Shown piece after piece: positions 8,893-26,941 of a stretch of 64,000 nucleotides of DNA. Position 1 is the first letter of the stretch. Every line of letters starts with the position of its first letter. The position numbers and the translations under genes were made by a program. The stretch covers positions 1,408,001 through 1,472,000 of the forward strand of contig JBMNFY010000017.1 of NCBI GenBank assembly GCA_050949565.1, in the 5' to 3' direction. The notes under the pieces are model-generated. The model searched no databases, had not been told where the DNA came from, and saw nothing but the letters and a program-made list of their open reading frames with translations. This DNA is from Kiritimatiellia bacterium (GTDB lineage Bacteria; Verrucomicrobiota; Kiritimatiellia; RFP12; UBA1067).

Positions 8893-8969
8893 GGGGTGGT
8901 GGCGCAATTGGTTAGCGCACCGGACTGTCGATCCGGTGGTCGCGGGTTCGAATCCCGTCCACCCCGCCA
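8893..8969 (+). tRNA. tRNA-Asp(GTC)
   Basis: Acceptor stem GGGGTGG/CCACCCC, anticodon arm CCGGA-CTGTCGA-TCCGG, T-loop GGTTCGAATCC, encoded CCA. Confidence 0.97.
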
Positions 8970-9360: not shown

Positions 9361-9387
9361 AAAACTCCTAAATCCTAAATCCTAAAT
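9361..9387. repeat. (A/C)TCCTAA heptamer tract
   Basis: AAAACTCCTAAATCCTAAATCCTAAAT immediately past the integrase stop codon. Confidence 0.85.
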
Positions 9388-9388
9388 T

Positions 9389-10681
9389 TCAACTGCCGGC
9401 GGGCTCCGCGCCACGCGCGGAGCCCGCCGGCGCGGAGCCCGTCAGCACCTCCGGCAGCGCCCGCGCGAGATCGGCGGCGAGCTCGCTGGCTTTGGGCTTG
9501 AAGTAATGGCGCAACACCAGGTCCACGGTTTTGTGGCCGGTGAGGGCGCGCACCTTATCCAAGCTCACGCCGCCGCTGATGGCGAGCGTCACAAAGGAGG
9601 TCCGCAGCGCGTGGAAGTCGTAAGTGGAGGCCGCGCGCACGCCGACGCGCCGCTGGCTTTGCGTGACCGACTTGATCGCGGCGGTGATGCCACGCGCCAA
9701 CTGCTCGGGGGTCGCGAAGGCGCGTGCAAAAACCTTTTTCACGCGCCATGTAATGCCGCCCGGATTGTCGCGCAGTAGCGCTTCCGCTTCCGGAAAGACA
9801 TACAGGCAGCCCTTGGCGCGTAGACCGGCGCGACGCTCGAGCACCTCGCGCAGACGCGGCAGGATCGGCAGCGTCAGGCTCACGCCGGTCTTGGCCGCCA
9901 CCAGCCGCAACGCGCCGCGATCGAGATCCACCTGCTCCCAGCGCAGACGACAAACATCGCCGCGCCGCAGTCCGGTCGAAAGCCCGGTCACAATCAGGTC
10001 GCATGCCAGTGGATCACTCTCCGCCGCTTGCAGCAGACGCCGGATCTCATCGCCGTCGAGCGGCGTGCGGTTGACCACGCGGTCGCCGCGCTCCGGCAGG
10101 ATACAGAGTGCCTTGAAGGGGTTGTCGCGATGCGGCTCCGACACCAGCGCGAACGCCTGCGTCAACACCGTCTTCATGGTGCGCAGCGTCTTGGCGGTGC
10201 GCTGTCGGCCGCTGGCGTCCGGTGCGCGCAGACGATCGAAATACGCTTGCGCCACACTGCGGCTGATCTGCTCCGGCGTCTGCAACGCCTGCGCCTCAGC
10301 CCATGTTACAAAGTCTTCAAGCAGACCGCGTTTCCATGTCGCCCACGATGATGCGCAGTGGCGCAGGGTGTCGGCGACACGCATGCGCTCCAACATCTCC
10401 CGCAGCGTGGGTGATGGATACGGCCCTGCGTCGGGCGATGCCGTGTTGTGACGGCTGCGATCGGCGGCCGCGCGCGCCTCAGCGCGGTGACGCTGCAAGA
10501 CCGCCTCGGCGCGCCGACGCGATGCTTCAAAGATGGCATCGCCGCGCTCACGCATGGATGCCGGAGGTGTGCCTTGCCAGCGGATGCCGGTATTGATGAC
10601 CCTCGCGCGCTTGTTGAGATAATACCGCCCATACAAAAACGGCAACAGCCGCCCATTCTTCTTCCGTAGTTCGATTGCCAT
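9389..10681 (-). CDS. Tyrosine recombinase/integrase
   Basis: Catalytic set intact: R (TGLRRGD), K (AAKTG), HxxR (FHALRT), H (GHKT), Y (RHYF). AGGAG RBS; about 420 bp downstream of tRNA-Asp. Confidence 0.93.
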   Translation of the reverse strand: MAIELRKKNGRLLPFLYGRYYLNKRARVINTGIRWQGTPPASMRERGDAIFEASRRRAEAVLQRHRAEARAAADRSRHNTASPDAGPYPSPTLREMLERMRVADTLRHCASSWATWKRGLLEDFVTWAEAQALQTPEQISRSVAQAYFDRLRAPDASGRQRTAKTLRTMKTVLTQAFALVSEPHRDNPFKALCILPERGDRVVNRTPLDGDEIRRLLQAAESDPLACDLIVTGLSTGLRRGDVCRLRWEQVDLDRGALRLVAAKTGVSLTLPILPRLREVLERRAGLRAKGCLYVFPEAEALLRDNPGGITWRVKKVFARAFATPEQLARGITAAIKSVTQSQRRVGVRAASTYDFHALRTSFVTLAISGGVSLDKVRALTGHKTVDLVLRHYFKPKASELAADLARALPEVLTGSAPAGSARGAEPAGS

Positions 10682-11776: not shown

Positions 11777-12730
11777 ATGAAAACCTTCGGGTATACTATG
11801 CGAGATAAGGCCGGGGCGCTCCAGCGCGGCTCGTTGCAGGCGCGTGACCGACAAGAAGCGCTACAGAAAATCCGGGCACTGGGCGGCACGCCGGTCAATG
11901 TCACGGAGAGCAGCGTGCCTAAAACACCGTTCGTCTGGCAACCGGCCTGGACGCGTGCCGCCGTCGGGCTCGGTGTCGCTGTCGTGGTGATCGCGGGCAT
12001 CGTCCTTTGGCTGCAACGTCCGCGCACACCGCCGCGTCCTGCACCCACACCTGCCCCGACACCGGTGACACCATCCGGTGCTGATACCTCGCGCCCGGCC
12101 GACACGCCCCGTCCCGATACCCCACCCGCCAATCCACGCACCGGAATCGCATCCCCCCGCGTGCCTGCTACCGGTCCCGCGCCCGTTGCGCCGCCTGCTG
12201 GTCCCGGCGGCACTGCCACTTCTCACGTTGCTCAGGTTACGCCCGACGCCGCTAACGAGCCGCTTGAAGAGGCACCGCCTGTGCGTCCCACGCCGTTTAA
12301 AACCGGCACCGAGCAGATCCTCGCGATCATCCAAACGACGCCGCCGGGCGTTCAGATGCCCCCGCTACCGGACTTGCACGGTATGGAGGAGGACTACAGA
12401 CGCGCCACCACCAACGTGCTGACCATCTTTGATACCGACAGCGATGAACTGGCGGGAACCATTGAAAACGTCGCCTGGGCCAAGGTGGAACTGGGCGAAC
12501 TGGTCAAGCAAGGCTGGAAGCCGGACGAGGTGCTCCAGGAACTCACACGCCAGCACAACGAAGAGGCCTCCTTGCGCACTGCCGCTTCGCTGGCGCTCAA
12601 AAAGATGGTGGATGACGGACAGTTCACCGCCGCCACCCTGAAAGAAGAACTTGAAGTGATCAACGCCGAGTTGAAAGAACGCGGTTTGCCGGAAATCATG
12701 CCCTCTGAGTTGGGGCTGATCGAGGAGTGA
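11777..12730 (+). CDS. Single-pass membrane protein: PilC/GspF-N-like head, TM helix, Pro-rich linker, helical C-domain
   Basis: MKTFGYTMRDKAGALQRGSLQARDRQEALQKIRALGGTPVNV resembles the N-terminus of PilC/GspF proteins; hydrophobic AAVGLGVAVVVIAGIVLWL; PT/PA-rich stretch. Confidence 0.7.
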   Translation: MKTFGYTMRDKAGALQRGSLQARDRQEALQKIRALGGTPVNVTESSVPKTPFVWQPAWTRAAVGLGVAVVVIAGIVLWLQRPRTPPRPAPTPAPTPVTPSGADTSRPADTPRPDTPPANPRTGIASPRVPATGPAPVAPPAGPGGTATSHVAQVTPDAANEPLEEAPPVRPTPFKTGTEQILAIIQTTPPGVQMPPLPDLHGMEEDYRRATTNVLTIFDTDSDELAGTIENVAWAKVELGELVKQGWKPDEVLQELTRQHNEEASLRTAASLALKKMVDDGQFTAATLKEELEVINAELKERGLPEIMPSELGLIEE

Positions 12731-12731
12731 C

Positions 12732-14834
12732 ATGAAAAAAACATTGCCCGCATGGATAATCTTTCTCGGTTCTTTTTTGCTCTTCGGGGTTCAACCCATG
12801 CTCGGGCGCACCCTGCTCCCATCCTTCGGCGGCACCGCCACCGTCTGGACCGTCTGCCTCGCCTCATACCAGACCCTGTTGCTGATCGGTTATTTCTATG
12901 CCCACCTGATCCGTAAACGGCCGGTGCGGCAACAGCAGCAACTCCACCGTGCCCTGTTGATTGTTTCGGTCATCTGGACTGCCGCTTTTGCCTTTGCGCG
13001 TCCACTGCTGAAACCCTTGATCGGCAACGGCTCCCAGCCTGCCCTGGAGGTGCTCTTCTGTGTGTTGCTCTGCGCCGGACTTCCGTATGTGTTGCTCTCG
13101 GCCAACAGCACGTTGATCCAGTCCTGGCTCACCGCGCACTCTGACTCCGCTACGGCCGGCACAGACTCCCGTGCCGTCTACCGCCTCTATGGCCTCTCCA
13201 ACCTCGGTTCGCTGCTGGGCTTGGTCGTCTATCCCTTCATCCTCGAGCCGTACGTCTCGCTGAGCGCCCAATGGTGGGGTTTCACCGCCGGGCTGGCCGC
13301 CTACACCGCCCTGATATGGCGGCTGGGCGCAGGTGCCCCAGCGTTGTCCGACAGGTCAGACAAGTCCGATGCGTCCGACCTGTCTGACTCGTCTGACTCA
13401 TCCGCCCACGCCTGGCTCTGGTTCGTGCTGCCGGGAGTCTCGGTTTTCCTGCTCAACGCGGTGACCGCGCACCTGACGCTTGATGTTATGCCGCTGCCGC
13501 TCTTGTGGGTGGTGCTGCTGGCGTTGTTCCTGCTAAGCTACGTCATCGGTTTCTCCTCATGGTCGCCGCGCCTGCTGCCCTTCCTGCCGGCCGTGACCGT
13601 GCTGAGTGTGGCCGGTATCGCGCTGACCTACCGCAATACCGGGCCTGACGGTGGTTTCGCCCTGAACCTCGCCGCCAGCCTCGTCCTCTGCCTCGTGGGC
13701 TGCACCTTCATCCACGCCTGGCTCTACAGCCTGCGCCCCAATACGCGCTTGCTCACCCGCTATTATCTCGGCAACGCTGCGGGCGGCGCGGTCGGCGGCT
13801 TGGCGGCCTCGCTGCTCATGCCTCTGGTCGCCAACACGGTGGCCGAGTTCCCGATCGCCGTGGTGCTGGTGGCTCTGGCGGTTCCGCTTTACGGCTTCAC
13901 CCGCAACGCTCACAAGCCGGTCAACGCCTACGCGCTTGTTCACACCCTGCTGGCCGCCGCCGCACTTGCCGGGCTCGCTTTTGCTTTCCAACCGCGCAAA
14001 GACGACCGCCCCGTCGTACGTTATGCGCGCGGTTTCTTCGGCACACTGCAGGTGCTTGAGGCCAAGGCTCGCTCCGCCCAAGGCGAAGGCGTGATCCACG
14101 AGTTTGTCCACGGCAACACGGTTCACGGCATCCAGGCACTGATTCCCGGCATGGAGCGCATGCCCACCACCTATTTCACCCCGCAGAACGGCGGCTACGC
14201 CATCCTCGGCCATCCCAAATACCGTGCCGGAGAACCCCTGCGCGTCAACATCCTCGGCCTCGGCGTGGGCGTGATGCTGGCTTACGCCCGCACCAACGAT
14301 TTCTACCGCTGCTACGAGATCAGCCCGGAAGCGTTGCGCATCGCCTCCGATCCCAGCCTCTTCACCTTTGTCAGCGGCTGTCCCGCCTCCCTCGACGTGC
14401 GCCTGCAGGACGCGCGCAAAGGACTTGAATCCGAGCTGGCCGCAGACGAGGAGCCTTACGACGTGATCCAGATCGATGCCTTCACCGGCGACAATCTGCC
14501 CTACCACCTCTCTACCCGCGAGGCGTTCGAGCTGTATTTCAAGATGCTCAAGCCCGACGGCATCCTCGCCGTCAACATCTCCAACTGGCACCTGGGGCTT
14601 GAACCGTTCATCAAGGCTGCGGGTGACGCCTTTGCCTGTCCAGTCGTGGTAATCGCCTCGCGCAATGACTATGCGCGCCTCTCCTTTGCCGCCAAGTTTG
14701 CCTTTTTCTGCCGGACCCCCGAAAAACTCGGCCCCCTGCCCGAGGGCGCTATGGTTCTCAACCTTGCGCAGGCCAAACCCTTTACCTTGCCCGTCGATGA
14801 AAAAGGCAGCTTTGTAAAACTGATCAACTGGTAG
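12732..14834 (+). CDS. Fused multi-TM / spermidine-synthase-like SAM methyltransferase
   Basis: FLGSFLLFGVQPMLGRTLLPSFGG, YRLYGLSNLGSLLGL, HGNTVHGIQ, ILGLGVG, YEISP, DVIQIDAFTGD, HLSTREAF, NISN. Confidence 0.85.
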   Translation: MKKTLPAWIIFLGSFLLFGVQPMLGRTLLPSFGGTATVWTVCLASYQTLLLIGYFYAHLIRKRPVRQQQQLHRALLIVSVIWTAAFAFARPLLKPLIGNGSQPALEVLFCVLLCAGLPYVLLSANSTLIQSWLTAHSDSATAGTDSRAVYRLYGLSNLGSLLGLVVYPFILEPYVSLSAQWWGFTAGLAAYTALIWRLGAGAPALSDRSDKSDASDLSDSSDSSAHAWLWFVLPGVSVFLLNAVTAHLTLDVMPLPLLWVVLLALFLLSYVIGFSSWSPRLLPFLPAVTVLSVAGIALTYRNTGPDGGFALNLAASLVLCLVGCTFIHAWLYSLRPNTRLLTRYYLGNAAGGAVGGLAASLLMPLVANTVAEFPIAVVLVALAVPLYGFTRNAHKPVNAYALVHTLLAAAALAGLAFAFQPRKDDRPVVRYARGFFGTLQVLEAKARSAQGEGVIHEFVHGNTVHGIQALIPGMERMPTTYFTPQNGGYAILGHPKYRAGEPLRVNILGLGVGVMLAYARTNDFYRCYEISPEALRIASDPSLFTFVSGCPASLDVRLQDARKGLESELAADEEPYDVIQIDAFTGDNLPYHLSTREAFELYFKMLKPDGILAVNISNWHLGLEPFIKAAGDAFACPVVVIASRNDYARLSFAAKFAFFCRTPEKLGPLPEGAMVLNLAQAKPFTLPVDEKGSFVKLINW

Positions 14835-14933
14835 AGACCCTTGCAAAACCCTGCGTGGCATGGGCGTCCCGCCCATGAAACACGGGCAGGATGCTCGTGC
14901 TACACCTGCGAGTAAGGGTTTTGTAAAAGTCTC
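14834..14933. mobile_element. 100-bp MITE-like element with a REP doublet inside
   Basis: Ends GAGACCCTTGCAAAACCCT / AGGGTTTTGTAAAAGTCTC enclose GTGGCATGGGCGTCCCGCCCATG and CACGGGCAGGATGCTCGTGCTAC; related copy at 34090-34166. Confidence 0.65.
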
Positions 14934-14967
14934 ACTAGAGGGAGTGTGAAGGAAAAAACGGAGTAGA

Positions 14968-15642
14968 ATGCGAATGAAAATGAGAATGTTGTTGTTGCTC
15001 TTGCCGATGGCGTTGCTGGCGGCGGAAAAGCCCGCCGTAAAACCGGCCCAACCCGCGCCGCCCCAAAAGAACGCGGTGCTGGAGCCGATCAAGGATGTCG
15101 ACGCCCTGTTACCTGCTGACGCGGACCAGCGTGCGCATGTGCTCTTTGTCAACGTTGGCAAGGCTCTGTCTGACGCCGAGTTCCGCGAGGCCGCCGCCTA
15201 CGTGCGCATGAAATACATGCTAAACGTGGCGGTGTGTGCGGCACCCAAACCCTTCGCACAAGAGGTCGTAGCCGACACCGCCGCGCTGAAAAAACGCTTC
15301 GGCAAGAACGCGTTGATTGTGGTGGCGATAGTCAAACAGGAAAAAAGCCCTTCGTTCATCAATGTGCCGGGCTTCTTCTCGCAGGTCAACCTGCGCGGGC
15401 TGGACAAGGATAACCCCGAAGAACTCTTTCTCAAAAAGCGCACGCGCCAGATGTTCCTCAAAGGCCTCGCCCACGCCTGCGGCATCGGTGCCACGATCGA
15501 CAATATGTGCGTGATGTTCTGCAACAGCTTCACGCTGGAAGGCATGGATCGTGTCAGCGCCACCTTCGGCCCCAACGCCTATTTCCCCATCCGCGAATTG
15601 CTCAGGGAACTGGGCGGGGAAGACATCTTTGTGCAGTGGTAA
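14968..15642 (+). CDS. Secreted hypothetical protein with a degenerate archaemetzincin-like C-terminus
   Basis: Signal peptide MLLLLLPMALLAA; RTRQMFLKGLAHACGIG...CVMFCNSFTLEGMD aligns by eye with R..KE..HE.GH..GL...CVM..S....E.D. Confidence 0.6.
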   Translation: MRMKMRMLLLLLPMALLAAEKPAVKPAQPAPPQKNAVLEPIKDVDALLPADADQRAHVLFVNVGKALSDAEFREAAAYVRMKYMLNVAVCAAPKPFAQEVVADTAALKKRFGKNALIVVAIVKQEKSPSFINVPGFFSQVNLRGLDKDNPEELFLKKRTRQMFLKGLAHACGIGATIDNMCVMFCNSFTLEGMDRVSATFGPNAYFPIRELLRELGGEDIFVQW

Positions 15643-15981
15643 GGAGCGGATTTAGGGGCTGACCCGTCTGACTTTCTCGCCCTTGCCGCGCTGCGCACGG
15701 CATACAGCCGCTCGGTGAAGCCGCCCTTTTCCAAAAACTCGCGCTCTTGCTCTTGAGCCTCAAGCTGACGGCGCAGCAGGTAGGTGGCTTGGTGCGCGGC
15801 GCAGAGCAGGGTGTTGGCGGCAATCTCCGGCGAGGCCTTCGCCACTAAAGCCGCGAGACCGTCAAGAAAAGCATCGTCGCACAACGCACGGCGGGTTTCC
15901 AGCGCCTCGGGCGCATTCTTGTCGGTAACTCCGCAAATGGCGGTAACCGCCTGAAGGCAACAATGCTCCGTCTTCACTCAT
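15579..15981 (-). pseudogene. Four-helix-bundle suffix-domain protein, internally deleted
   Basis: ATG 15981 reads MSEDGALLPSGGYRHLRSY, the typical N-terminus. Near 15922 it joins out of frame to DKNAPEAL...EIAANTLLCAAHQATYLLRRQL...FLEKGGFTERLYAVR (suffix domain). The helical core is missing. Confidence 0.8.
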
Positions 15982-16049
15982 GGGGGCATGGTACAGCATC
16001 GGGAATGCGCTTGCAAGGCTCGTTTTTGGGGGATTCGGCTTTTAGTCTG

Positions 16050-16087
16050 CCCCGTCCGCCCCGTCCGCCCCGTCCGACCCGTCCGAC
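16050..16087. repeat. CCCGTCCG(C/A) nonamer x4
   Basis: Visible tandem repeat upstream of the four-helix-bundle pseudogene. Confidence 0.8.
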
Positions 16088-16312
16088 TTTCGCGCCGCGC
16101 TGTGCGCGGCATACAGCCGCCGCAGACAACCAAGGGACGGTTGGCACATTTAGCGGCCGCCCAACTCCTCCCAACCTTCCAACTGGGCGAAAACGGGCGA
16201 CGGGACATGATAAGCAAGCCTGCGCACGGCTTCAACGCTAAGAACATGTGCAAACTGCGATAAAGCTGCTTATTTGCTGTCAAAAAGCAAGCTTAACATT
16301 TGCTTTCCTTTG

Positions 16313-17070
16313 TTTAACGCCCAGGTCGAGAGCGTCAACATCGTGGGGTACAACACCGTCACGCTTGACAAGCAGTGGACCATCATCGCGGCGAACTTCG
16401 AGGCCGTCGGCGGCGGTGCCATTGCCATTGCAGGATGCCTTCCCCTACAGTGACGGCATGACCAAGGGAAACACGACGGCAACGGCCGACGTCTTGCAGA
16501 TTCAGAATGCGGTAGGCGGCTATGACACTTACTACCTGAGCAACGGCAAGAACGCCAAGGGCGCGACGGTCGCAGGCTTGGACGGTAAGTGGGCGGCGGG
16601 CGGCACCTATTCACCGACTACGGCGACGATCGTCTCAGGTACAGCGCTCTGGTACAACGCGCGCAACCCTAGCTCGACACTGAAAATCACGGTGGCGGGA
16701 CAGGCACTCACCACAGCCGCGAGCGATATGCCGATCAATCTGACGTGGAAACACATCGCCAACCCCTACCCGACCGACCTGCCGCTCAATGATGGCATCC
16801 CCTACACGGATGGCATGACCAAAGGAAACACGACGGCTACCGCCGACAACATTCAGATCCAGAACGCGCTGGGCGGCTACGACACCTACTACATGAGCAA
16901 CGGCAAGAACGCCAAGGGCGCGACGGTCGCAGGCTTGGACGGATAAGTGGGCGGCGGGAGGTACGTACTCGCCGGCTACTGCTTCAATCCCCGTCGGTTC
17001 GGGTGCGTGGTATATGCGCCGTGGTTCGACGAGCTTCACTGTGCAGGTAGTGCGTCCTTACGCTCTGTAA
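16313..17070 (+). pseudogene. Secreted repeat protein, cassette copy L (no start or signal peptide; frameshifts)
   Basis: Native frame begins FNAQVESVNIVGYNTVT; two internal GMTKGNTTATAD..QIQNA.GGYDTYY.SNGKNAKGATVAGLDGKW units. The upstream sequence has no RBS or MKK leader. Indels near 16430 and 16943. Confidence 0.75.
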
Positions 17071-17138
17071 ACCAAACGCTTTACCTGCTGGGGCACGTTG
17101 TCCCATCCGGTGAAACTGAAACAACGAAAACAAGGATA

Positions 17139-17702
17139 ATGAAAATGAAGAAGTTCATGACCATTGCGTGCGTGCTCGCCTTCGTGGGTGTGGCGCAGGC
17201 CGCTTCGCTTGCGTGGGGCGGTTTGTTGGTAACTCGCAGGAAGCCACCGGTACGATGGGTGCGACGGGTGCCTATGCCAACCTGATCTACATCGGGATGG
17301 CCGATCCGGGCACCGCAGTGACCTCTTGGGATAAACCCACCGGACTCACCAATCTGGGCGGCACAATCGTGGCGACCCACGCCATCACGCGCGGGAAGCC
17401 ACGTCGACTATGCGTTCGTTGGACATCTTCGTCCGCGCGGATGGAGAAGGCGGTGTCAACGGATACTGGATGATGGTGGTCTACGATCCCAACACCTCAG
17501 CCGGACTATTTCGGTTGGCATATCGCGCAGGTCACCGGTATCTCGGACTCCACCGGTGCGGGTGACCTTCCAGCTCATGACCGGCTTTGGTCCGGGCGAG
17601 TATCTGGACGCCGGCATGCAGGCAGTTCCTGAGCCGACCTCGATGGCGTTGCTGGCTCTCGGCGTCGCGGCTCTTGGCCTGCGCCGGAAGTTCCGCGCGT
17701 AA
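17139..17702 (+). CDS. PEP-CTERM sorting-domain protein, copy L (frameshifted as assembled)
   Basis: AAGGA RBS, MKMKKFMTIACVLAFVGVAQA signal peptide, C-terminus VPEPTSMALLALGVAALGLRRKFRA; several single-base indels. Confidence 0.8.
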
Positions 17703-17726
17703 GCGAGCAACCGCTTAATTAAGACG

Positions 17727-17768
17727 AAACAGGTTCCTTGGTGAAAGCCGGGGAACCTGTTTGTTTTT
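17727..17768 (+). terminator. Intrinsic terminator of PEP-CTERM copy L
   Basis: AAACAGGTTCCTTGG-tgaaag-CCGGGGAACCTGTTT + GTTTTT. Confidence 0.8.
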
Positions 17769-17843
17769 AGGGACGGCACGTAAACGCCTGTTCAAATCGG
17801 GATTGGAACCGATGGTTTAACCAAATTTTGAAACAGCCCCTCC

Positions 17844-17883
17844 AAAAAAACAAACCCCGGGATTTCTCCCGAGGTCTGTTTTC
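17844..17883 (-). terminator. Intrinsic terminator of PEP-CTERM copy R
   Basis: Hairpin AAAC..CCCCGGGA-tttc-TCCCGAGG..GTTT preceded by an A7 run on the plus strand (U-tract on the minus strand). Confidence 0.65.
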
Positions 17884-17939
17884 AATCCACCTTTAACTCA
17901 TGCACGAATTAACTCATGCACGAATTAACTATGAACTTC

Positions 17940-18513
17940 CTATTTGCGCACCTTGCGGCGCAGGCCGAGGGCTGCAACGCCCAACGCCAAGAGCGCCATC
18001 GAGGTCGGCTCAGGAATGACACCGATCTGGGCGCCAGCATCCAGATACTCGCCCGGGTTCCAGCCCGTAGTGAGCTGAATATCACCCGCACCGGTAGAGT
18101 CCGAAATACCGGTGACCTGCGCGATATGCCAGCCGAAGTAATCCGGTGAGGTGTTGGGATCGTAGACCACCATCATCCAATATCCGTTGACACCGCCTGC
18201 GTCCGTCCGCGCGGGCGAAGTAGTCAACGAACGCGTAATCCTCCGTGGCTTCCCGCGCCGTGATGTCGTGGGTCGCCACGACATTGCCGCCAAGATTGGA
18301 GAGACCCGTGGTTTTATCCCATGTGGTTACTGCACTACCCGGATCGGCCAGTCCCATGTAGATCAACGTAGCGTAAGCACCAGTCGAACCCATTGTACCG
18401 GTGCCGTCCTGCGAATTGCCTAAGAATCCGCCCCAATTGAGCGAAGCGGCCTGCGCCGCGCCCGCCAAGGCGAGCACGCACGCAATGGTCATGAACTTCT
18501 TCATTTTCATCAT
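17940..18513 (-). CDS. PEP-CTERM sorting-domain protein, copy R (frameshifted as assembled)
   Basis: MMKMKKFMTIACVLALAGAAQA signal peptide; C-terminus IPEPTSMALLALGVAALGLRRKVRK; split over ORFs 18082-18513 and 17940-18293. Confidence 0.82.
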
Positions 18514-18621
18514 CCTTGTTTTCGTTGTTCCAGTTTCGCGGATGCGGGCACATCCCGCATCCGCAATTGTTCTTACTTACTTAACGCACCAGCCAACTGA
18601 TGCACTAATGAGCTTCTCCGT

Positions 18622-19428
18622 TTACAGAGCGTAAGGACGCACCACCTGCACGGTGAAGTCCGTCGAGCCGCGACGCAGATACCACGCACCCGCGCCGACG
18701 GGAATCTGCAGCCGTAGTCGGTGTGTACTGACCAGCCTGCGCCCACTTACCGTCCAAACCCGCGACCGTCGCGCCCTTGGCGTTCTTGCCGTTGCTCATG
18801 TAGTAGATGTCGTAGCCGCCCGCGCATTCTGGATCTGAATCATATCGGCGGTAGCCGTCGTGTTTCCTTTGGTCATGCCGTCCGTGTAAGGAATGCCATC
18901 ATTGAGCGGCAGGTCGGTCGGGTAGGGGTTGGCGATGTGTTTCCACGTCAGATTGATCGGCATATCGCTCGCGGCTGTGGTGAGTGCCTGTCCCGCCACC
19001 GTGATTTTCAGTGTCGAGCTAGGGTTGCGCGCGTTGTACCAGAGCGCTGTGCCAGGGGCGATCGTCGCCGTAGTCGGCGTGAATAGTGCCGCCCTGCCGC
19101 CCACTTACCGTCCAAGCCCGCGACCGTCGCGCCCTTGGCGTTCTTGCCGTTGCTCAGGTAGTAGATGTCATAGCCGCCTACCGCATTCTGAATCTGCAAG
19201 ACGTCGGCCGTTGCCGTCGTGTTTCCCTTGGTCATGCCGTCGCTGTAGGGGAAGGCGTCCTGAATGGCAATGGCACCACCGCCGACGGCCTCGAAGTTCG
19301 CCGCGACAATCGTCCACTGCTTGTCGATCGTGACGGTGTTGTACCCCACGATGTTGACGCTCTCGCACCTGGGCGTCAACCAGACCGGCAAGAGCGCATG
19401 CTGCAAATGCAGTTACTAACTTTTTCAT
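18622..19428 (-). CDS. Secreted repeat protein, cassette copy R (complete 5' end; frameshifted as assembled)
   Basis: GGAGG RBS, MKKLVTAFAACALAGLVDAQV-ESVNIVGY, the same two internal repeats as copy L; split over ORFs 19168-19434, 19008-19406, 18796-19104 and 18605-18799. Confidence 0.8.
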
Positions 19429-19580
19429 TCTCAAACCTCCAGAGAAAGTTAGGATTTAGGATTTAGGATTTAGGAGTTGGGGGCTGACGCCCTTGTTTCA
19501 ACCCGTTAAACCGCTTTCTCCCGCCTCGTTCCTTCCTCGTTTGTTTCGGAGTTTTCCTTTTCCAACTCAAAGACGCGAAC

Positions 19581-19610
19581 AGTTTACCCTGTGGTACACT
19601 GACACGTCAA
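19581..19610 (-). promoter_or_regulatory. Sigma70-type promoter driving cassette R
   Basis: Minus strand TTGACG-18 bp-TAAACT, preceded by an A-rich element. Confidence 0.65.
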
Positions 19611-20473
19611 CAACCTTTTTTGGGTAAAACTTGCCATCTTTTCCAGATTCAGGATTCCGTTGTCGGCTCCAGGTACCAAGCACTTACTCAATACCTACTA
19701 CCTGTACCTCCTGCCTATTCCTACTCCAGGGTCGTGACTCTCCGCAACGGCGTCGAACGCAGCCATATCCCGCCTTCCGACCGTGCTCCCTCGCGAATCG
19801 CCCCGGGGCACCTAGCCGCCAACCTTGACACTTGATGCTGCCAGACCGCCGGGTGTACAACAACGAAAGAATGACCAACATCCCGTCCGCCAGTCTGTCC
19901 AGCACCGCTGCCCTCTAACCTTTCTGCACCACTCCCGGAGCCCAGATCCATGTCCGTCCACTACCCACTACCACACTAATCAGACTAACTATTGCACTAA
20001 TGAACCAAGAACTCACGCACTTCTCTAGACTCGCCCTGCCTTTCTAAAACGGTGTTTTGATCCCTTTAACGGAATCGCACCCGCACCCGCGGGCACAATC
20101 CACCTTTTTTACGTCAATGGTAAGTGTAGACTAACGGACAAGGGAGCGCAAGCGGAAAACGCGGAAAAAATAAAATTTTTTTCGCCGCGTTTTCCGCAGT
20201 TAGGAGGTAGCCGCGCTATGCGCGGAGTTGTACATTTAGGAGTTAGGAGTTAGGATGTTAGGAGTTTTTAACTTCGGCGTTGGGCGTTCTGCGTTGGACG
20301 TTCTGCGTTCAGAAGCGGCGGCGCGGCCGCCGCCGGTCAAGCAGACGCTTGCCCCTCCCGGCGCTTCGCAAGTCTGGCGAAAAAATTTGGAGTGCGGCGG
20401 CAAGCGGTATTCCGCGCGACGCCGCTTTTTGAGCAGGAGTACGGCGGCAGGGCGGCGCACAAAAGACGAGGTT

Positions 20474-20775
20474 AACCTAAAAAGAGCAGTTGAACCTTCA
20501 ACTCTCTTTGGTTTCTGGTTTCAAGGTTTCAAGGTTTCATGGTTTCAGGTTTCATCCAAATCGGGATCGGGATCGCTATCGGGATCGATTGTTTAACCAC
20601 GGAACACACCGAACACACGGAAAGGCATGGCTCTGTTTCCGTGTGTTTAGTGTGTTCCGTGGTTCCAATCAGAAATGGCGTTCTGCACCAAATAGGTGCG
20701 GCGCGGATCTCAACGGAAGCCGATGTTTACGGGGCTTTGCTCAAAATCTGCATGCTCAACTGCTCTTTTTAGGTT
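20474..20775. mobile_element. MITE-like element, 302 bp, perfect 20-bp terminal inverted repeats
   Basis: AACCTAAAAAGAGCAGTTGA (20474-20493) / TCAACTGCTCTTTTTAGGTT (20756-20775); no coding capacity. Confidence 0.8.
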
Positions 20776-20908
20776 TAACGCAGAACGCAGAACGCAGAGG
20801 TGTGGCACGGGCATCTTGCCCGTGTTTTCATGGGCGGGACGCCCATGCTCCGCAGTTAGGAGTTAGGATTTAGGAGTTTTTGGCGTTGCTCGGGGGGGGG
20901 GGGGGGTT

Positions 20909-21195
20909 AACCTAAAAAGAGCAGTTGAACCTTCAACTCTCTTTGGTTTCTGGTTTCAAGGTTTCATGGTTTCATCCAAATCGGGATCGGGATCGCTATC
21001 GGGATCGATTGTTTAACCACGGAACACACCGAACACACGGAAAGGCATGGCTCTGTTTCCGTGTGTTTAGTGTGTTCCGTGGTTCCAATCAGAAATGGCG
21101 TTCTGCACCAAATAGGTGCGGCGCGGATCTCAACGGAAGCCGATGTTTACGGGGCTTTGCTCAAAATCTGCATGCTCAACTGCTCTTTTTAGGTT
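20909..21195. mobile_element. MITE-like element, second full copy (287 bp)
   Basis: Same 20-bp TIRs; differs by the number of internal GGTTTCA units; preceded by a G15 run (20892-20906). Confidence 0.8.
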
Positions 21196-21300
21196 TAACG
21201 CAGAACGCCGAACGCAGAGGTGTAGCACGGGCATCTTGCCCGTGTTTTCATGGGCGGGACGCCCATGCCACGGCTTTTTGCGCGTGAACGCCAAACGCAG

Positions 21301-21432
21301 AACGCAGAAGGAATGAAACTCCTAAATCCTAAATCCTAAATGTCAACTCAAGCGCGGCGCGCAGTTGCGCGGCGCGCTTGACGTATGCCGCTAGGGAAAC
21401 GATACTGCTGGTGCTTTGGGGATGAGAGTGTG
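21301..21432 (+). repeat. 132-bp direct duplication (second copy 21879-22010) containing a hairpin and a promoter-like motif
   Basis: TCAAGCGCG...CGCGCTTGA hairpin overlapping TTGACG-17 bp-GATACT; identical block at 21879-22010. Confidence 0.8.
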
Positions 21433-21448
21433 AGGGACTGTGACATCA

Positions 21449-21654
21449 TCCAAATCGGGATCGGGATCGCTATCGGGATCGATTGTTTAACCACGGAACA
21501 CACCGAACACACGGAAAGGCATGGCTCTGTTTCCGTGTGTTTAGTGTGTTCCGTGGTTCCAATCAGAAATTGCGTTCTGCACCAAATAGGTGCGGCGCGG
21601 ATCTCAACGGAAGCCGATGTTTACGGGGCTTTGCTCAACTGCTCTTTTTAGGTT
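21449..21654. mobile_element. Partial copy of the MITE-like element (right TIR only)
   Basis: Internal modules plus CAACTGCTCTTTTTAGGTT; followed by two REP doublets at about 21680-21730 and 21792-21841. Confidence 0.75.
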
Positions 21655-22021
21655 TAACGCAGAACGCAGAACGCAGAGGTGTAGCACGGGCATCCTGCCC
21701 GTGTTTTCATGGGCGGGACGCCCATGCCACGGCTTTTTGCGCGTGAACGCCGAACGTAGAACGCAGAACGCAAAACGCCGAACGCAGAGGTGTGGCACGG
21801 GCATCTTGCCCGTGTTTTCATGGGCGGGACGCCCATGCCACGGCTTTTTGCGGCGTGAACGCAGAACGCAGAACGCAGAACGCAGAAGGAATGAAACTCC
21901 TAAATCCTAAATCCTAAATGTCAACTCAAGCGCGGCGCGCAGTTGCGCGGCGCGCTTGACGTATGCCGCTAGGGAAACGATACTGCTGGTGCTTTGGGGA
22001 TGAGAGTGTGGGCGACTAAGT

Positions 22022-22741
22022 GTGAGGAATAGTGTGATGGCCTATAGACTACGTTTGTTTATCGCAGTAATGATGTGTCCGGTGTTGCTGTGCGCTAAGG
22101 CTGCGCCGGAACCGCGCTGGATTGCGGCGGAGCTGCCGGCACCGGCGGAGGAGCCGACGCGCTTTTTGCGGACGTTTCATCTGGCGCATGCGCCTGCAAG
22201 GACCTGGGTGCGTGTCCACGCACACGACCGCTATCGCCTGATTGTGAATGCGCATCCGGTGAGCGTGGGCGATACGACATGGGATGCGGAGACGTATGAT
22301 ATCTCGTCGTTCGCGACGGTCGGCACGAATAGGATCGAGATCGCCGCCGATGCTGATACGCAGAGCCCCGCCAATTGTTTTGTCTGGCTACGACGGCGTT
22401 TGCCGGCACCGGCGGCGTTCGAGCGGCTCAGCTTCCGGACGCGCGACGCGCGTCGGGAGGAGTGGCTCTATATCGAGGTGGTTGACGACAAGGGACGCAC
22501 CTCGGGGTTTTACTGCGTGGAGCGGCGCGGCGCGACCTGCTTTGCCGTGGCGCGCCTTTGTCCGGAGCGTGTGCGCCGTCAGGCGGAAAAGCGGCCGGCA
22601 CGCGTCAAGGATCGCAAGGGGGCCTGGATCGTGCTCGATGGCTTCCGGCCCGAGGATCTCGGGCCGCACGAGGCTTCGCTGCCGCCGGTCGGTGACGCGA
22701 TGCGGCTTGTGTTTAAGGGGCGGGAGGTGCGAGTGAAGTGA
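22022..22741 (+). pseudogene. Probably truncated secreted glycosidase (alpha-L-rhamnosidase N-terminal-like domain only)
   Basis: Signal peptide, then RWI...FLRTFHL...VRVHAHDRYRLIVNAHPV...ETYDISSFATVGTNRIEIAA; no catalytic domain in 239 aa. Confidence 0.5.
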
Positions 22742-23011
22742 GGATTTAGGATTTAGGATTTAGGAGTTGTGGCATGGGCGTCCCGCCCATGAAACACGGG
22801 CAAGATGCCCGTGCCACACTTGCAGACAAGGGGTTTTGCAAGCCCCTCTTGGGTGAGGAGTGAGGAGATGGCGGCGTAAACGCCGCCCACAGAACCATGG
22901 CGGCGTGGACGCCGCCCACAGAACTGTGGCGCTTTTTGAGCCGCTGCGTGGTCGCAATAAGGCGCGGATGGCGCTTGAAACCCTCATGCGTAACCTTTAA
23001 ACTACGGGCCT

Positions 23012-23788: not shown

Positions 23789-23932
23789 CAAACGTCATTT
23801 AGGATTTGTGATTTAGGATTTAGGATTTAGGATTTGGCGCTTGGAACCACGGAGACACAGAGACACAGAGGTTTTTTGGGAGGCTCTGCTCCAACCGCAG
23901 GTCGCGGGTCGAATGTCGCGGGTCAACCTCTC

Positions 23933-23980
23933 TTATTGCGACCACAAAGTGGCTCGCAATCTTGAGAGTAAAAGCGCTGC
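23933..23980. repeat. 48-bp element, copy 2
   Basis: 45/48 match to 8722-8769; its last 7 nt (GCGCTGC) begin the tandem array. Confidence 0.85.
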
Positions 23981-25010
23981 TCGGGTTTGTTTAACCACAG
24001 AGAACACAGAGAGCACAGAGGGTTTTGGAGGGCATGGATGCGTTTTTTTAACGCAGAGACGCAGAGGCGCGGAGGTTTTTTGGAGGGAGCGCTGCTCGGG
24101 TTTGTTTAACCACAGAGAACACAGAGAGCACAGAGGGTTTTTGAGGGCAGGGATGCGTTTTTTTAACGCAGAGACGCAGAGGCGCGGAGGTTTTTTGGAG
24201 GGAGCGCTGCTCGGGTTTGTTTAACCACAGAGAACACAGAGAGCACAGAGGGTTTTGGAGGGCAGGGATGCGTTTTTTTAACGCAGAGACGCAGAGGCGC
24301 GGAGGTTTTTTGGAGGGAGCGCTGCTCGGGTTTGTTTAACCACAGAGAACACAGAGAGCACAGAGGGTTTTGGAGGGCATGGATGCGTTTTTTTAACGCA
24401 GAGACGCAGAGGCGCGGAGGTTTTTTGGAGGGAGCGCTGCTCGGGTTTGTTTAACCACAGAGAACACAGAGAGCACAGAGGGTTTTGGAGGGCATGGATG
24501 CGTTTTTTTAACGCAGAGACGCAGAGGCGCGGAGGTTTTTTGGAGGGAGCGCTGCTCGGGTTTGTTTAACCACAGAGAACACAGAGAGCACAGAGGGTTT
24601 TGGAGGGCATGGATGCGTTTTTTTAACGCAGAGACGCAGAGGCGCAGAGGTTTTTTGGAGGGAACGCCTGCTCGGGTTTGTTTAACCACAGAGAACACAG
24701 AGAGCACAGAGGGTTTTGGAGGGCATGGATGCGTTTTTTTAACGCAGAGACGCAGAGGCGCGGAGGTTTTTTGGAGGGAACGCCTGCTCGGGTTTGTTTA
24801 ACCACAGAGAACACAGAGAGCACAGAGGGTTTTGGAGGGCATGGATGCGTTTTTTTAACGCAGAGACGCAGAGGCGCGGAGGTTTTTTGGAGGGAGCGCT
24901 GCTCGGGTTTGTTTAACCACAGAGAACACAGAGAGCACAGAGGGTTTTGGAGGGCATGGATGCGTTTTTTTAACGCAGAGACGCAGAGGCGCAGAGGTTT
25001 TTTGGAGGGA
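23974..25010. repeat. Tandem array, 9 x 115-116 bp, no spacers
   Basis: AACCACAGAGAACACAGAGAGCACAGAG at 23993, 24108, 24223, 24338, 24453, 24568, 24684, 24800 and 24915. Confidence 0.97.
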
Positions 25011-25157
25011 GCTGCCCTGTGGGCTCTGCCGGGACTGCGGGATCTGCGAGTGGTGGCGGCGTGACCGCCGCCGGGCTGTGCGCTGGCGACTAAGTGTGAG
25101 AAACTAAGTGTGAGAAACTCCCAACTCCTAAATCCTAAATCCTAACTGTAAACTCCC

Positions 25158-25604
25158 ATGCGTTGTCCCAAATGTGGCCATTTAGATGATAAGGTGCTGG
25201 ACAGCCGCGCGGCGCGTGAAGGCGCGTCGATCCGTCGGCGGCGGCAGTGTCTTGCTTGTGAGCATCGCTTCACGACTTACGAAGAGATCGTGAAGGACGA
25301 GCTGCGCGTGGTCAAACACGATGGCCGGCGCGAAGAGTTCAGCCGGGAGAAACTTGTGCGCGGCCTGATGCGCGCCTGCGAAAAGCGTCCGATCAGCGCG
25401 GATCAAATACGTGATTTGGTCGATCAGGTCGTCGAAAGCTTCGAAGGCGAGAGCGAAGTGACGACGGAAAAAATCGGACAGGCGGTGATGGCGCGGCTGC
25501 ACCGGCTTGATGATGTGGCCTATATCCGCTTTGCTTCGGTCTACCGCCGCTTCGCTGATGTCAACCAGTTCTTGCAAGCGGTCAAGGATATGGTGGAGAA
25601 GTAA
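25158..25604 (+). CDS. nrdR: Transcriptional repressor NrdR
   Basis: MRCPKC...KVLDSR...IRRRRQCLACEHRFTTYE, ATP cone, DDVAYIRFASVYRRF. Confidence 0.97.
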   Translation: MRCPKCGHLDDKVLDSRAAREGASIRRRRQCLACEHRFTTYEEIVKDELRVVKHDGRREEFSREKLVRGLMRACEKRPISADQIRDLVDQVVESFEGESEVTTEKIGQAVMARLHRLDDVAYIRFASVYRRFADVNQFLQAVKDMVEK

Positions 25605-25607
25605 ATT

Positions 25608-26581
25608 TGGGATTTAGGATTTGGAACCATGAAACACATGAAACTTCATGAAAATCAGAGGCTGCCCCTTGCCGCACAGAGCGCGACCCGCGCTATGTGT
25701 GGAGTTAGAAATTTAGGATTTAGGATTTGGAACCATGAAACACATGAAACTTCATGAAAATCAGAGGCTGCCCCTTGCCGCACAGAGCGCGACCCGCGCT
25801 ATGTGTGGAGTTAGAAATTTAGGATTTAGGATTTGGAACCATGAAACACATGAAACTTCATGAAAATCAGAGGCTGCCCCTTGCCGCACAGAGCGCGACC
25901 CGCGCTATGTGTGGAGTTAGAAATTTAGGATTTAGGATTTGGAACCATGAAACACATGAAACTTCATGAAAATCAGAGGCTGCCCCTTGCCGCACAGAGC
26001 GCGACCCGCGCTATGTGTGGAGTTAGAAATTTAGGATTTAGGATTTGGAACCATGAAACACATGAAACTTCATGAAAATCAGAGGCTGCCCCTTGCCGCA
26101 CAGAGCGCGACCCGCGCTATGTGTGGAGTTAGAAATTTAGGATTTAGGATTTGGAACCATGAAACACATGAAACTTCATGAAAATCAGAGGCTGCCCCTT
26201 GCCGCACAGAGCGCGACCCGCGCTATGTGTGGAGTTAGAAATTTAGGATTTAGGATTTGGAACCATGAAACACATGAAACTTCATGAAAAGCAGAGGCTG
26301 CCCCTTGCCGCACAGAGCGCGACCCGCGCTATGTGTGGAGTTAGAAATTTAGGATTTAGGATTTGGAACCATGAAACACATGAAACTTCATGAAAATCAG
26401 AGGCTGCCCCTTGCCGCACAGAGCGCGACCCGCGCTATGTGTGGAGTTAGAAATTTAGGATTTAGGATTTGGAACCATGAAACACATGAAACTTCATGAA
26501 AAGCAGAGGCTGCCCCTTGCCGCACAGAGCGCGACCCGCGCTATGTGTGGAGTTAGAAATTTAGGATTTAGGATTTAGGAT
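25608..26581. repeat. Tandem array, 9 x 106 bp, no spacers
   Basis: AACCATGAAACACATGAAACTTCATGAAAA at 25625, 25731, 25837, 25943, 26049, 26155, 26261, 26367 and 26473; units 7 and 9 share one T>G variant. Confidence 0.97.
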
Positions 26582-26941
26582 TTGTACAAGTTGACTGTCT
26601 ATATTCCGGAGTCGCATCTTGAGGTTGTGAAGGATGCGCTGTTTGCTGCGGGGGCCGGACGTTACGCCGCCTATGACCGTTGCTGCTGGCAGGTGCTGGG
26701 CCAGGGGCAGTTCCGTCCGCTCGCTGGCAGTGATCCGTTCATCGGGACACAGGACCAAGAGGAGCGTCTGCCCGAGTACCGTGTCGAGATGATCTGCGCC
26801 GATGATGTGGTCGCTGCGGTAACGGATGCGCTGCGCGCCGCGCATCCCTATGAGGAGCCGGCGTTTGATTTTGTGCGCTGCTCGGGTGTCGGCTCTGCCG
26901 GGACTGCCGGTGATGCGACGCATGCGCCGACGCACTCCTAA
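26582..26941 (+). CDS. YqfO/NIF3-insert-like (PII-like) small protein
   Basis: YKLTVYIPESHLEVVKDALFAAGAG...YDRCCW...GQFRPLAGSDPFIG...ALRAAHPYEEPAFD. Confidence 0.85.
   Translation: MYKLTVYIPESHLEVVKDALFAAGAGRYAAYDRCCWQVLGQGQFRPLAGSDPFIGTQDQEERLPEYRVEMICADDVVAAVTDALRAAHPYEEPAFDFVRCSGVGSAGTAGDATHAPTHS

Follow-up and report, generated by a model that had tools for sequence, protein, structure and literature searches.

The DNA analysed here, referred to as the window throughout, is a stretch of 64,000 nucleotides (nt) from a Kiritimatiellia bacterium (G000:C17:1408001-1472000; genome of 4.66 Mb in 21 contigs), and our subject is a pair of two-gene cassettes that lie in it as an inverted repeat. 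Copy L (16311-17696, + strand) and copy R (19382-17946, - strand) align over 1374 nt in 32 blocks, with 1239 identical positions (90.2%). Each copy consists of a gene for a repeat protein, named G1 hereafter, followed by a gene for a PEP-CTERM protein (gene 2), and the two gene pairs are convergent. DNA and protein searches of the whole genome found L and R as the only copies. By three-frame reading, copy L comprises a G1 body without signal peptide (16311..17070, +) and a gene 2 with its own ATG and signal peptide (17139..17702, +); a terminator-like hairpin with a 16-pair stem and a T-run follows at 17727..17772 (+). Copy R, read on the - strand, has gene 1 with a signal peptide (18622..19428, by three-frame reading; signal peptide at about 19366-19428), gene 2 (17940..18513, recognized by PF07589 and TIGR02595) and a terminator-like hairpin with T-run at about 17843..17880. 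Between the convergent cassettes lies a unique centre of 237 nt (17703..17939), whose orientation marks the state of the segment.

Homology between the copies begins abruptly, at 16311/16313 in L and at 19382/19380 in R, three codons ahead of the likely signal-peptidase site, and a 47-nt stretch is identical at both cassette borders. The alignments place the left border, the junction segment of copy L, at 16311..16339 (+) and the right border, the junction segment of the putative expression site, at 19355..19382 (-), the latter with perfect inverted arms of 8 nt. A GGAGG, an ATG and a signal peptide for gene 1 are present in R and absent from L. The leader of the putative expression site (19429..19623, -) contains the GGAGG at 19437-19441, a heptamer repeat at 19447-19478 and promoter-like hexamers at 19581-19610; the flank of the putative silent site (15978..16310, +) has no signal-peptide coding, GGAGG or promoter-like site on its + strand. 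An earlier note on this DNA, made from the letters alone, had described inverted gene-pair copies of ~1.4 kb, a terminator for each, a GGAGG and a signal peptide on R only, homology starting abruptly at the end of the signal peptide and PEP-CTERM copies that differ across the mature protein. All of this is borne out by alignment and sequence reading, and the differences it quoted are correct. Its promoter for R fared less well: promoter-like hexamers do occur at 19581-19610, but they are only a 9/12 match to the consensus, the region has three such sites, compared with 1.5 ± 1.1 in shuffles, and RNA contigs extend upstream of the site.

G1 is a protein of about 267 amino acids (aa) with two repeats of 119 aa. 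Its AlphaFold2 model (predicted local distance difference test, pLDDT, 85.7; predicted template modelling score, pTM, 0.81) consists of two tandem beta-sandwich domains. A Foldseek search of the PDB with this model returned no match at E <= 0.001, and in the wide VIA-align comparison the best hit was a designed double-stranded beta-helix (Z 5.1, 2.9 Å over 73 residues). As this likeness is a generic jelly-roll or cupin-like one, no function can be drawn from it. Neither Pfam nor NCBIfam gave a match above cut-off (Choline_bind_3 reached 20.7 bits, with a cut-off of 27), and the ESM Atlas yielded 'hypothetical protein' clusters only. Among 11 close alleles 82 of 246 columns are variable, with peaks in two loops, one after MTKG and one after KWA; alleles P0001-P0005 and P0109-P0117 served for the loop comparison. 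In 10 of the 11 alleles the hypervariable loops have the same sequence in repeats 1 and 2, which suggests that the two domains may change in concert. The loop variation would fit diversifying selection on an exposed or ligand-binding surface. The product of gene 2 (about 190 aa) carries a signal peptide of its own and, at the C-terminus, a PEP-CTERM anchor made of the PEP motif, a hydrophobic helix and a basic tail; it scores 31.1 bits with PF07589 (cut-off 20.7) and 25.1 and 24.9 bits with TIGR02595 (cut-off 16). Read by eye, its leader is Lys-rich, hydrophobic and of the AQA type in both copies. The same genome encodes an exosortase (PF09721, 167.6 bits, at G000:C15:54390-55097). The model of the PEP-CTERM protein (pLDDT 64.6) was too weak for a structure search, and a predicted complex of mature G1 with the PEP-CTERM ectodomain scored 0.17 against a mark of 0.32, which gives no verdict.

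The earlier note had overlooked frameshifts in both copies: gene 1 has two frame breaks in L (about 16430 and 16943) and four in R, and gene 2 has at least four in L and one in R. At least 12 frame-breaking indels are packed into 16311-19382, outside homopolymers; long open reading frames (ORFs) elsewhere in the window are intact and reach 2661 aa. In order to compare the consensus with public data, contigs of the DNA runs X1, X4 and X7 and of the RNA run X15 (Logan) were aligned to positions 17700-20100, which cover the right half only, and 12 of 33 indel rows and 40 of 148 variant rows were examined. The contigs omit 18204 (absent from the contigs of X1, X7 and X15), 19078-79, 19095 and 19366, and they add a base behind 18821 and behind 19085. 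These six edits restore a full reading frame of 190 aa to R gene 2; in R gene 1 they give an uninterrupted frame from the ATG as far as about 18706, at which point the runs have a patch of different sequence. Since public contigs correct six indels, the frame breaks are local consensus errors of the window, at least in R. Such a cluster within 3 kb of an otherwise clean assembly resembles a failure of polishing at this one place; mixed alleles or orientations in the source sample may be responsible, as a mixed read population would give such errors.

A comparison of orientation among relatives, which the earlier note had proposed, came out positive. A scan of metagenome contigs of the Joint Genome Institute (JGI) gave 12 relatives among 67 pattern matches, and two of them carry swapped flank-cassette joins. 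Contig L023 (2078 nt) starts with the left, leaderless flank of the window (16196-16310, 115 of 115 positions identical). Its gene 1 is 97% identical to L and 92% to R and is an intact ORF; its intergenic region and gene 2 are 93% identical to R and 72% to L, and the R terminator comes next. The centre of L023 (235 of 238 positions identical) stands in the orientation that follows R, inverted relative to the window, and the end of an L-type gene 2 lies convergent beyond it. Contig L024 (1655 nt) starts with the window's leader and signal peptide (234 of 234 positions identical) and continues with a gene 1 that has an R-type 3′ end, after which come an L-type intergenic region, an intact L-type gene 2 (85% identical to L, 70% to R) and the L-type terminator. 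Flanks are thus 100% conserved between these contigs and the window, whereas the cassettes are 82-97% identical. Runs of diagnostic sites locate the change of type in both contigs within L 17049-17073 / R 18643-18619, and consequently the window has an inner 1.6 kb, consisting of intergenic region, gene 2, centre, second gene 2 and second intergenic region, inverted relative to them. The left end-point interval of this inner inversion (17049..17073, +) falls on the conserved 3′ end and stop of gene 1; the right one, likewise set by diagnostic sites, is 18619..18643 (-).

The public runs point the same way. Of the 40 variants against the window that were examined (148 in total), 36 equal the L023 allele. 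In X1 one contig with an R-type intergenic region has L-type letters at 12 of 12 listed variant positions between 18709 and 18761 (depth 12), and another with an L-type intergenic region has R-type letters over 18709-18761 (depth 8). These reciprocal joints occur on k=31 contigs, and fewer than 31 nt in a row are shared exactly at that place. In X4 and X7 there are contigs that connect the centre with the gene-2 ends on either side. This inner event is the only inversion documented at the DNA level, and its end-points fall within the arms, where gene 1 stops, rather than at the border marked by the signal peptide.

Exchange at the signal-peptide border itself was examined in proteins. A collection of 5.8 billion proteins was searched with the G1 of L023, which gave 107 matches at E <= 1e-40, and the members of the six closest clusters were read. 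A body termed 'A' stands behind the N-terminus of the leaderless flank in P0001, P0112, P0113 and P0115 (the last identical to L023) and behind a full signal peptide in P0109, whose body is 100% identical (rounded) to that of P0001. A 'B' body is found behind the signal peptide in P0117 (identical to L024) and behind the leaderless flank in P0004, at 93% identity. P0108 and P0114 are mosaics of A and B bodies, and the leaderless copy is intact in four contigs (L023, P0001, P0112 and P0113). The distribution of A and B is the reciprocal pattern that would be expected from exchange of whole cassettes at the border. Exactly where the signal peptide meets mature G1, P0109 and P0116 contain an additional Val (AQVV-ESV, not AQV-ESV), and the R copy of the window has an unexplained extra base at the same junction (19366).

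Apart from its heptamer repeat the leader (19429-19623) is unique in the genome, and contigs of 172 nt match it with 0 differences in X1 and X4. Its depth is about 1300 in X15 and three to five times the flank depth in the DNA runs, and one loose contig end at 19331 runs into an unrelated body. The depth shows that other bodies, too, stand behind this leader in these communities. In X15, L023-type cassette contigs run along 17987-19365 at a depth of 47-77, the centre has a depth of 0-3.4, and 19644-19805, upstream of the leader, has a depth of 0. Contig depth in the RNA run drops from 244 to 3.4 at about 17943, next to the terminator-like hairpin of R. The type of cassette that stands at the leaderless flank in L023 is transcribed in this other sample, which fits a P0109-like arrangement and fits an unrecognized promoter in the left flank equally well. 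We rejected the depth ratio of the cassette types in X15 (47-77 versus about 4) as an expression ranking, as these are per-contig figures from a mixed community. The uncovered stretch 19644-19805 was likewise rejected as a transcript end; its cause is a deletion of 207 nt immediately upstream of the promoter-like site, a variant in which 19623 is joined to 19831 in contigs of X7 and X15. The region upstream of the putative expression site is therefore polymorphic too.

Cassettes of this kind are widespread in the order. Profile searches found the G1 family in 100 of 151 sampled genomes and in 71 of the 95 of high quality. One genome (G033) holds six modules in both orientations within 11 kb, with a signal peptide on the last only and with one silent cassette in direct orientation to the expression site. 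Another (G141) has four modules arranged as two convergent pairs, and one module of the four has a signal peptide. In G112 and in G086 one copy has a signal peptide and at least one other lacks it. All four modules in the 13 kb examined of G085 are leaderless, as are the six copies on two contigs of G040 (0/6 with a signal peptide) and the two convergent modules of L032 (0/2). In the clusters checked by eye, with up to six cassettes in both orientations, there is at most one signal-peptide copy each. The signal-peptide region is present in 10 of 10 single-copy loci (L014, L015, L016, L020, L025, L026, L027, L029, L030 and L041), of which L026 has a frame break at the start codon and L020 is without a canonical start codon. 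Leaderless copies in every multi-copy genome retain the last 6-10 codons of the signal peptide, and homology to the expression copy begins there. The retained border segment of 48 nt is 85-89% identical among paralogs, compared with 54-70% for the segments on either side, and at least seven other genomes or contigs contain leaderless copies that are cut at the same codons. A scan of genome contigs gave two loci only, both single modules. The genomes of the same genus (G001-G006, 56-89% complete) gave no G1 match, so that orientation could not be compared there. The genome of the window encodes, at G000:C11:35439-36233, one more but distant member of the family (E 1.4e-28 to the profile), which has a signal-peptide region. 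In G033 an AbiEi/AbiEii type IV toxin-antitoxin pair and an AbiEi-like gene lie between cassettes 2 and 3 (L035 10950-13251, on G033:C12).

In our proposal, which we hold to be probable, the locus combines two cassettes with a single expression site and a single silent site, and the variants are exchanged by inversion. The right flank carries the sole leader, consisting of the transcription start region, the 5′ untranslated region (UTR), the GGAGG, the ATG and about 18 signal-peptide codons. Each of the two convergent cassettes between the flanks is made up of a G1 body, a whole gene for a PEP-CTERM protein and its terminator. If the inverted arms recombine, the DNA between the cross-over points would flip, so that a cross-over at the 5′ border would exchange whole cassettes, and one at the conserved end of gene 1 the PEP-CTERM gene alone. 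The exported variants of G1 and of the PEP-CTERM protein would change as a result, and exosortase-dependent sorting would put the PEP-CTERM partner at the surface. The inverted segment would amount to 1.6-3.05 kb of coding DNA, with the leader and the promoter-like site outside the arms. The earlier note had predicted a flip of ~3.05 kb that switches variants: across samples the swapped combinations agree with it (L023/L024, P0109/P0001, P0117/P0004), but the end-points found at the DNA level lie inside the arms. Under this proposal exchange within populations would be reversible, the left site would be silent and the variation would be a selected function; escape from phage or predators might be the benefit, which is a guess.

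Several observations weigh against this proposal. Whole-cassette exchange is documented by single short-read contigs (P0109, P0004), which could be chimeras given the 47 nt that are identical at both borders. No sample showed both orientations in its contigs over 17700-20100, and contigs drop rare variants. If the strain in X15 has the arrangement of L023, the 'silent' cassette is transcribed, and with the leader at a depth of about 1300 in X15, far above the 47-77 of the cassette, most leader RNA there comes from other alleles or organisms. Taking the start of the profile match as a stand-in for the signal peptide, 48 of 70 singleton matches include the signal-peptide region and clusters of at least three copies have at most one such match; this stand-in misses divergent signal peptides and was set aside in favour of the loci read by eye. 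The tyrosine recombinase of the window (430 aa, 9389..10681, -; PF00589, 60.2 bits, E 2.9e-16), which the earlier note had named as a possible catalyst, is not a conserved neighbour of such cassettes, and five recombinase queries (tblastn) gave no match in the examined parts of G033, G079, G141, G085, G112 and G086. There is also no border dyad common to the genomes compared. The dyad has perfect 8-nt arms in R of the window, is imperfect in copy L and in L024, and is partial in the border segment of L023, with 7-nt arms and an 11-nt spacer; not being conserved among relatives, it was rejected as the core site of a recombinase.

Three other explanations have to be weighed. The cassettes could be ordinary inverted paralogs, with L a drifting remnant without its 5′ end and the rearrangements rare by-products of recombination that have no switching function. 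Mosaics and a cross-over inside the arms are indeed expected of any 1.4-kb inverted repeat at 90% identity, and both the lack of a dedicated recombinase in the examined parts of six other loci and the lack of heterogeneity within samples in contigs over 17700-20100 agree with this explanation. We nevertheless consider it unlikely, because a drifting remnant should not keep its ORFs open in four independent contigs, nor should leaderless copies be cut at the same codons in at least seven other genomes or contigs. One signal-peptide copy per cluster of at least three cassettes, wherever such a copy was located by eye, speaks against it as well, and so does a border segment whose DNA is conserved even where the bodies are 55-65% identical.

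Reciprocity argues against the next candidate, a non-reciprocal gene conversion of the pilE/pilS or vlsE type, in which a leaderless donor would be copied into the expression site and the inversion would be incidental. Both joints of the inner event are seen, in X1 as well as in L023 and L024 together, and the centre is physically inverted; a B-type body at the silent flank (P0004) is not predicted by one-way conversion into the expression site. Conversion does account for the finding that one body allele can stand at either site, depending on the contig, and for the patches of P0108 and P0114, which fit conversion tracts, and the silent cassette of G033 in direct orientation to its expression site also suits it. 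On balance we regard it as very unlikely. That the inverted copy or the alternative arrangements arose by mis-assembly is extremely unlikely, even though the consensus of the window is poor (at least 12 frame breaks) and short-read contigs can be chimeric over identical stretches. In X4 and X7 independent contigs run from the centre into the gene-2 ends on both sides, L023 holds flank, cassette, centre and a convergent second gene 2 on one contig, and the joints at the stop of gene 1 lie on k=31 contigs although the exact shared stretch is shorter than 31 nt. Moreover, the convergent two-module design recurs in L032, G033, G040 and G141.

If inversion is the process, the enzyme behind it has to be considered. 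Cross-overs inside the arms and mosaic alleles imply that general homologous recombination acts here, and we lean towards such recombination between the 1.4-kb arms as the cause. A site-specific recombinase acting at the border is a possible but somewhat doubtful cause: the border is conserved where bodies, at 55-65% identity, are too diverged for homologous exchange, which hints at a short site. The integrase of the window lies 5.6 kb from the cassettes and 420 nt from a tRNA-Asp gene (GTC; 8893..8969, +; found by ARAGORN; Rfam RF00005, 74.2 bits), placed like an island integrase. As a possible island border, a second copy of the 3′ end of this tRNA gene (23 nt, up to 3 mismatches) was looked for and not found within the window. 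The integrase is 24% identical to one that adjoins the module in L026. In G040 a tRNA-Pro gene and an integrase-like ORF stand directly before one cassette cluster (L037 4876-7265), and at least four integrase-like paralogs, one of them 91% identical to the ORF in L037, adjoin the other cluster (L040 1847-7808). The integrase-like ORFs of G040 all score below the Pfam cut-off, and those of L026 and G040 are only distant relatives of the window integrase.

The proposed switch can be compared with known ones. In Campylobacter fetus (sap) and Lactobacillus acidophilus (slpA/slpB), oppositely oriented expressed and silent genes for surface proteins are exchanged by an inversion of a few kb. These inversions run through homologous 5′ regions, and the one in C. 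fetus depends on RecA. Long homologous inverted arms, varying cross-over points and mosaic alleles (P0108, P0114) are likewise found at our locus. The sap and slp cassettes consist of single genes for surface-layer proteins, whereas here the cassette has two genes and cross-overs occur at the end of gene 1 too; in sap the promoter element itself moves, whereas here it lies outside the inverted segment. In Mycoplasma pulmonis the vsa locus has one expression site with a promoter, a ribosome site and the 5′ coding part, together with silent genes that are without them (PMC2268961), and its inversions join the 5′ end of the expression site to a silent body (PMC2268961). Our locus has the same single leader copy, sharp border and leaderless bodies, and the same cassette at both sites, the last across samples only. 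It differs in the shared 5′ part, which comprises about 18 signal-peptide codons here and 714 nt in vsa, in its two-gene cassette (G1 and PEP-CTERM) and in its host, a diderm member of the Kiritimatiellae. In addition, vsa has the tyrosine recombinase HvsR and a short recombination site, whereas here the arms are long (1.4 kb, 90% identical).

Gene-altering inversions such as those of hsdS shufflons, SusC/RagA, pilin and phage tail fibres create alternative alleles from inverted partial copies (PMC9881135). They resemble our locus in that the inversion takes place within coding sequence and involves inverted partial copies; unlike it, they usually have an adjacent invertase, and the main text of that article contains none of the terms 'signal peptide', 'exosortase' and 'Verrucomicrobia' (PMC9881135). 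Promoter invertons of the type known from fimS, Bacteroides and Akkermansia are not matched, as there is no small promoter-bearing segment between short repeats here. In Akkermansia, the genes found to be enriched at distances of up to 5 kb from invertons include those for PEP-CTERM proteins, and inverton group 138 of Akkermansia muciniphila is described as a segment of about 150-200 bp that has inverted repeats of 17 nt, contains a promoter-like motif and provides ON/OFF control (PMC11892184). The likeness consists in a related superphylum and in PEP-CTERM genes; the difference is that here whole coding cassettes would be exchanged behind a fixed leader. The statement of the earlier note that no switch of PEP-CTERM proteins had been described thus needs qualification in view of the enrichment in Akkermansia. 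Literature searches that paired PEP-CTERM proteins with Kiritimatiellae found no article, and those that paired PEP-CTERM proteins with cassette or inversion switches, or Kiritimatiellota with invertons, found no description of the present design, supplements not covered; in this narrower sense the statement stands. Taken together, the comparisons support the view that the locus follows the switch logic known from vsa, sap and slp and extends it to a widespread, undescribed cassette family.

Environmental diderm bacteria have PEP-CTERM proteins in great number, and a role is known for almost none of them. Here one PEP-CTERM family, always paired with G1, is maintained in the form of cassettes that have hypervariable loops, are expressed or putatively silent and can be exchanged, which reads as a signature of strong diversifying selection on a putatively exposed structure. 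With the proposed system, surface variation by cassettes would no longer be confined to host-associated pathogens (mycoplasmas, Campylobacter) but would reach Kiritimatiellota of bioreactors and rumen. The locus also draws attention to a class of loci in which polishing by long-read metagenome assemblers is poor. As a tentative extension, it is conceivable that such loci are programmed shufflons across the order, with one expression site, up to five or more leaderless cassettes in both orientations, and a short site in the last codons of the signal peptide that is recognized by a recombinase usually encoded elsewhere. If this were true, free-living and gut anaerobes would have vsa-like surface variation of high frequency, probably directed against phage or grazers, the first example of its kind among exosortase-sorted proteins.

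Further features surround the cassettes. A multi-pass membrane protein of 700 aa and small neighbours, all without Pfam hits, adjoin G1/PEP-CTERM modules in three loci (window 11777-15642, L026 5125-8789 and L042 2388-5572), and the membrane protein may be linked functionally to these modules. The heptamer repeat (TTAGGAT)n, about 30 nt long, which stands in the 5′ UTR of the R operon (19447-19478), occurs at more than 50 sites in the genome, and in the window also at 9366-9390, 20236-20266, 21317-21348, 22741-22765, 23797-23835 and 26559-26583; in the metagenome runs its contig depth reaches about 8700, with many different flanks. There are two large intergenic tandem arrays, one at 23973-25012 (115 nt in 9.0 copies, 98% match) and one at 25603-26576 (106 nt in 9.2 copies, 99% match), the unit of the latter containing the heptamer repeat, and an nrdR-like ORF (25158-25604) is located between them. 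The region 20525-21887 holds three copies of a 300-nt unit, spaced by 420 and 474 nt, and four copies of an 86-nt element with two GC-rich palindromes each; a further inverted copy stands at 14851-14907, just after the gene for the 700-aa membrane protein.

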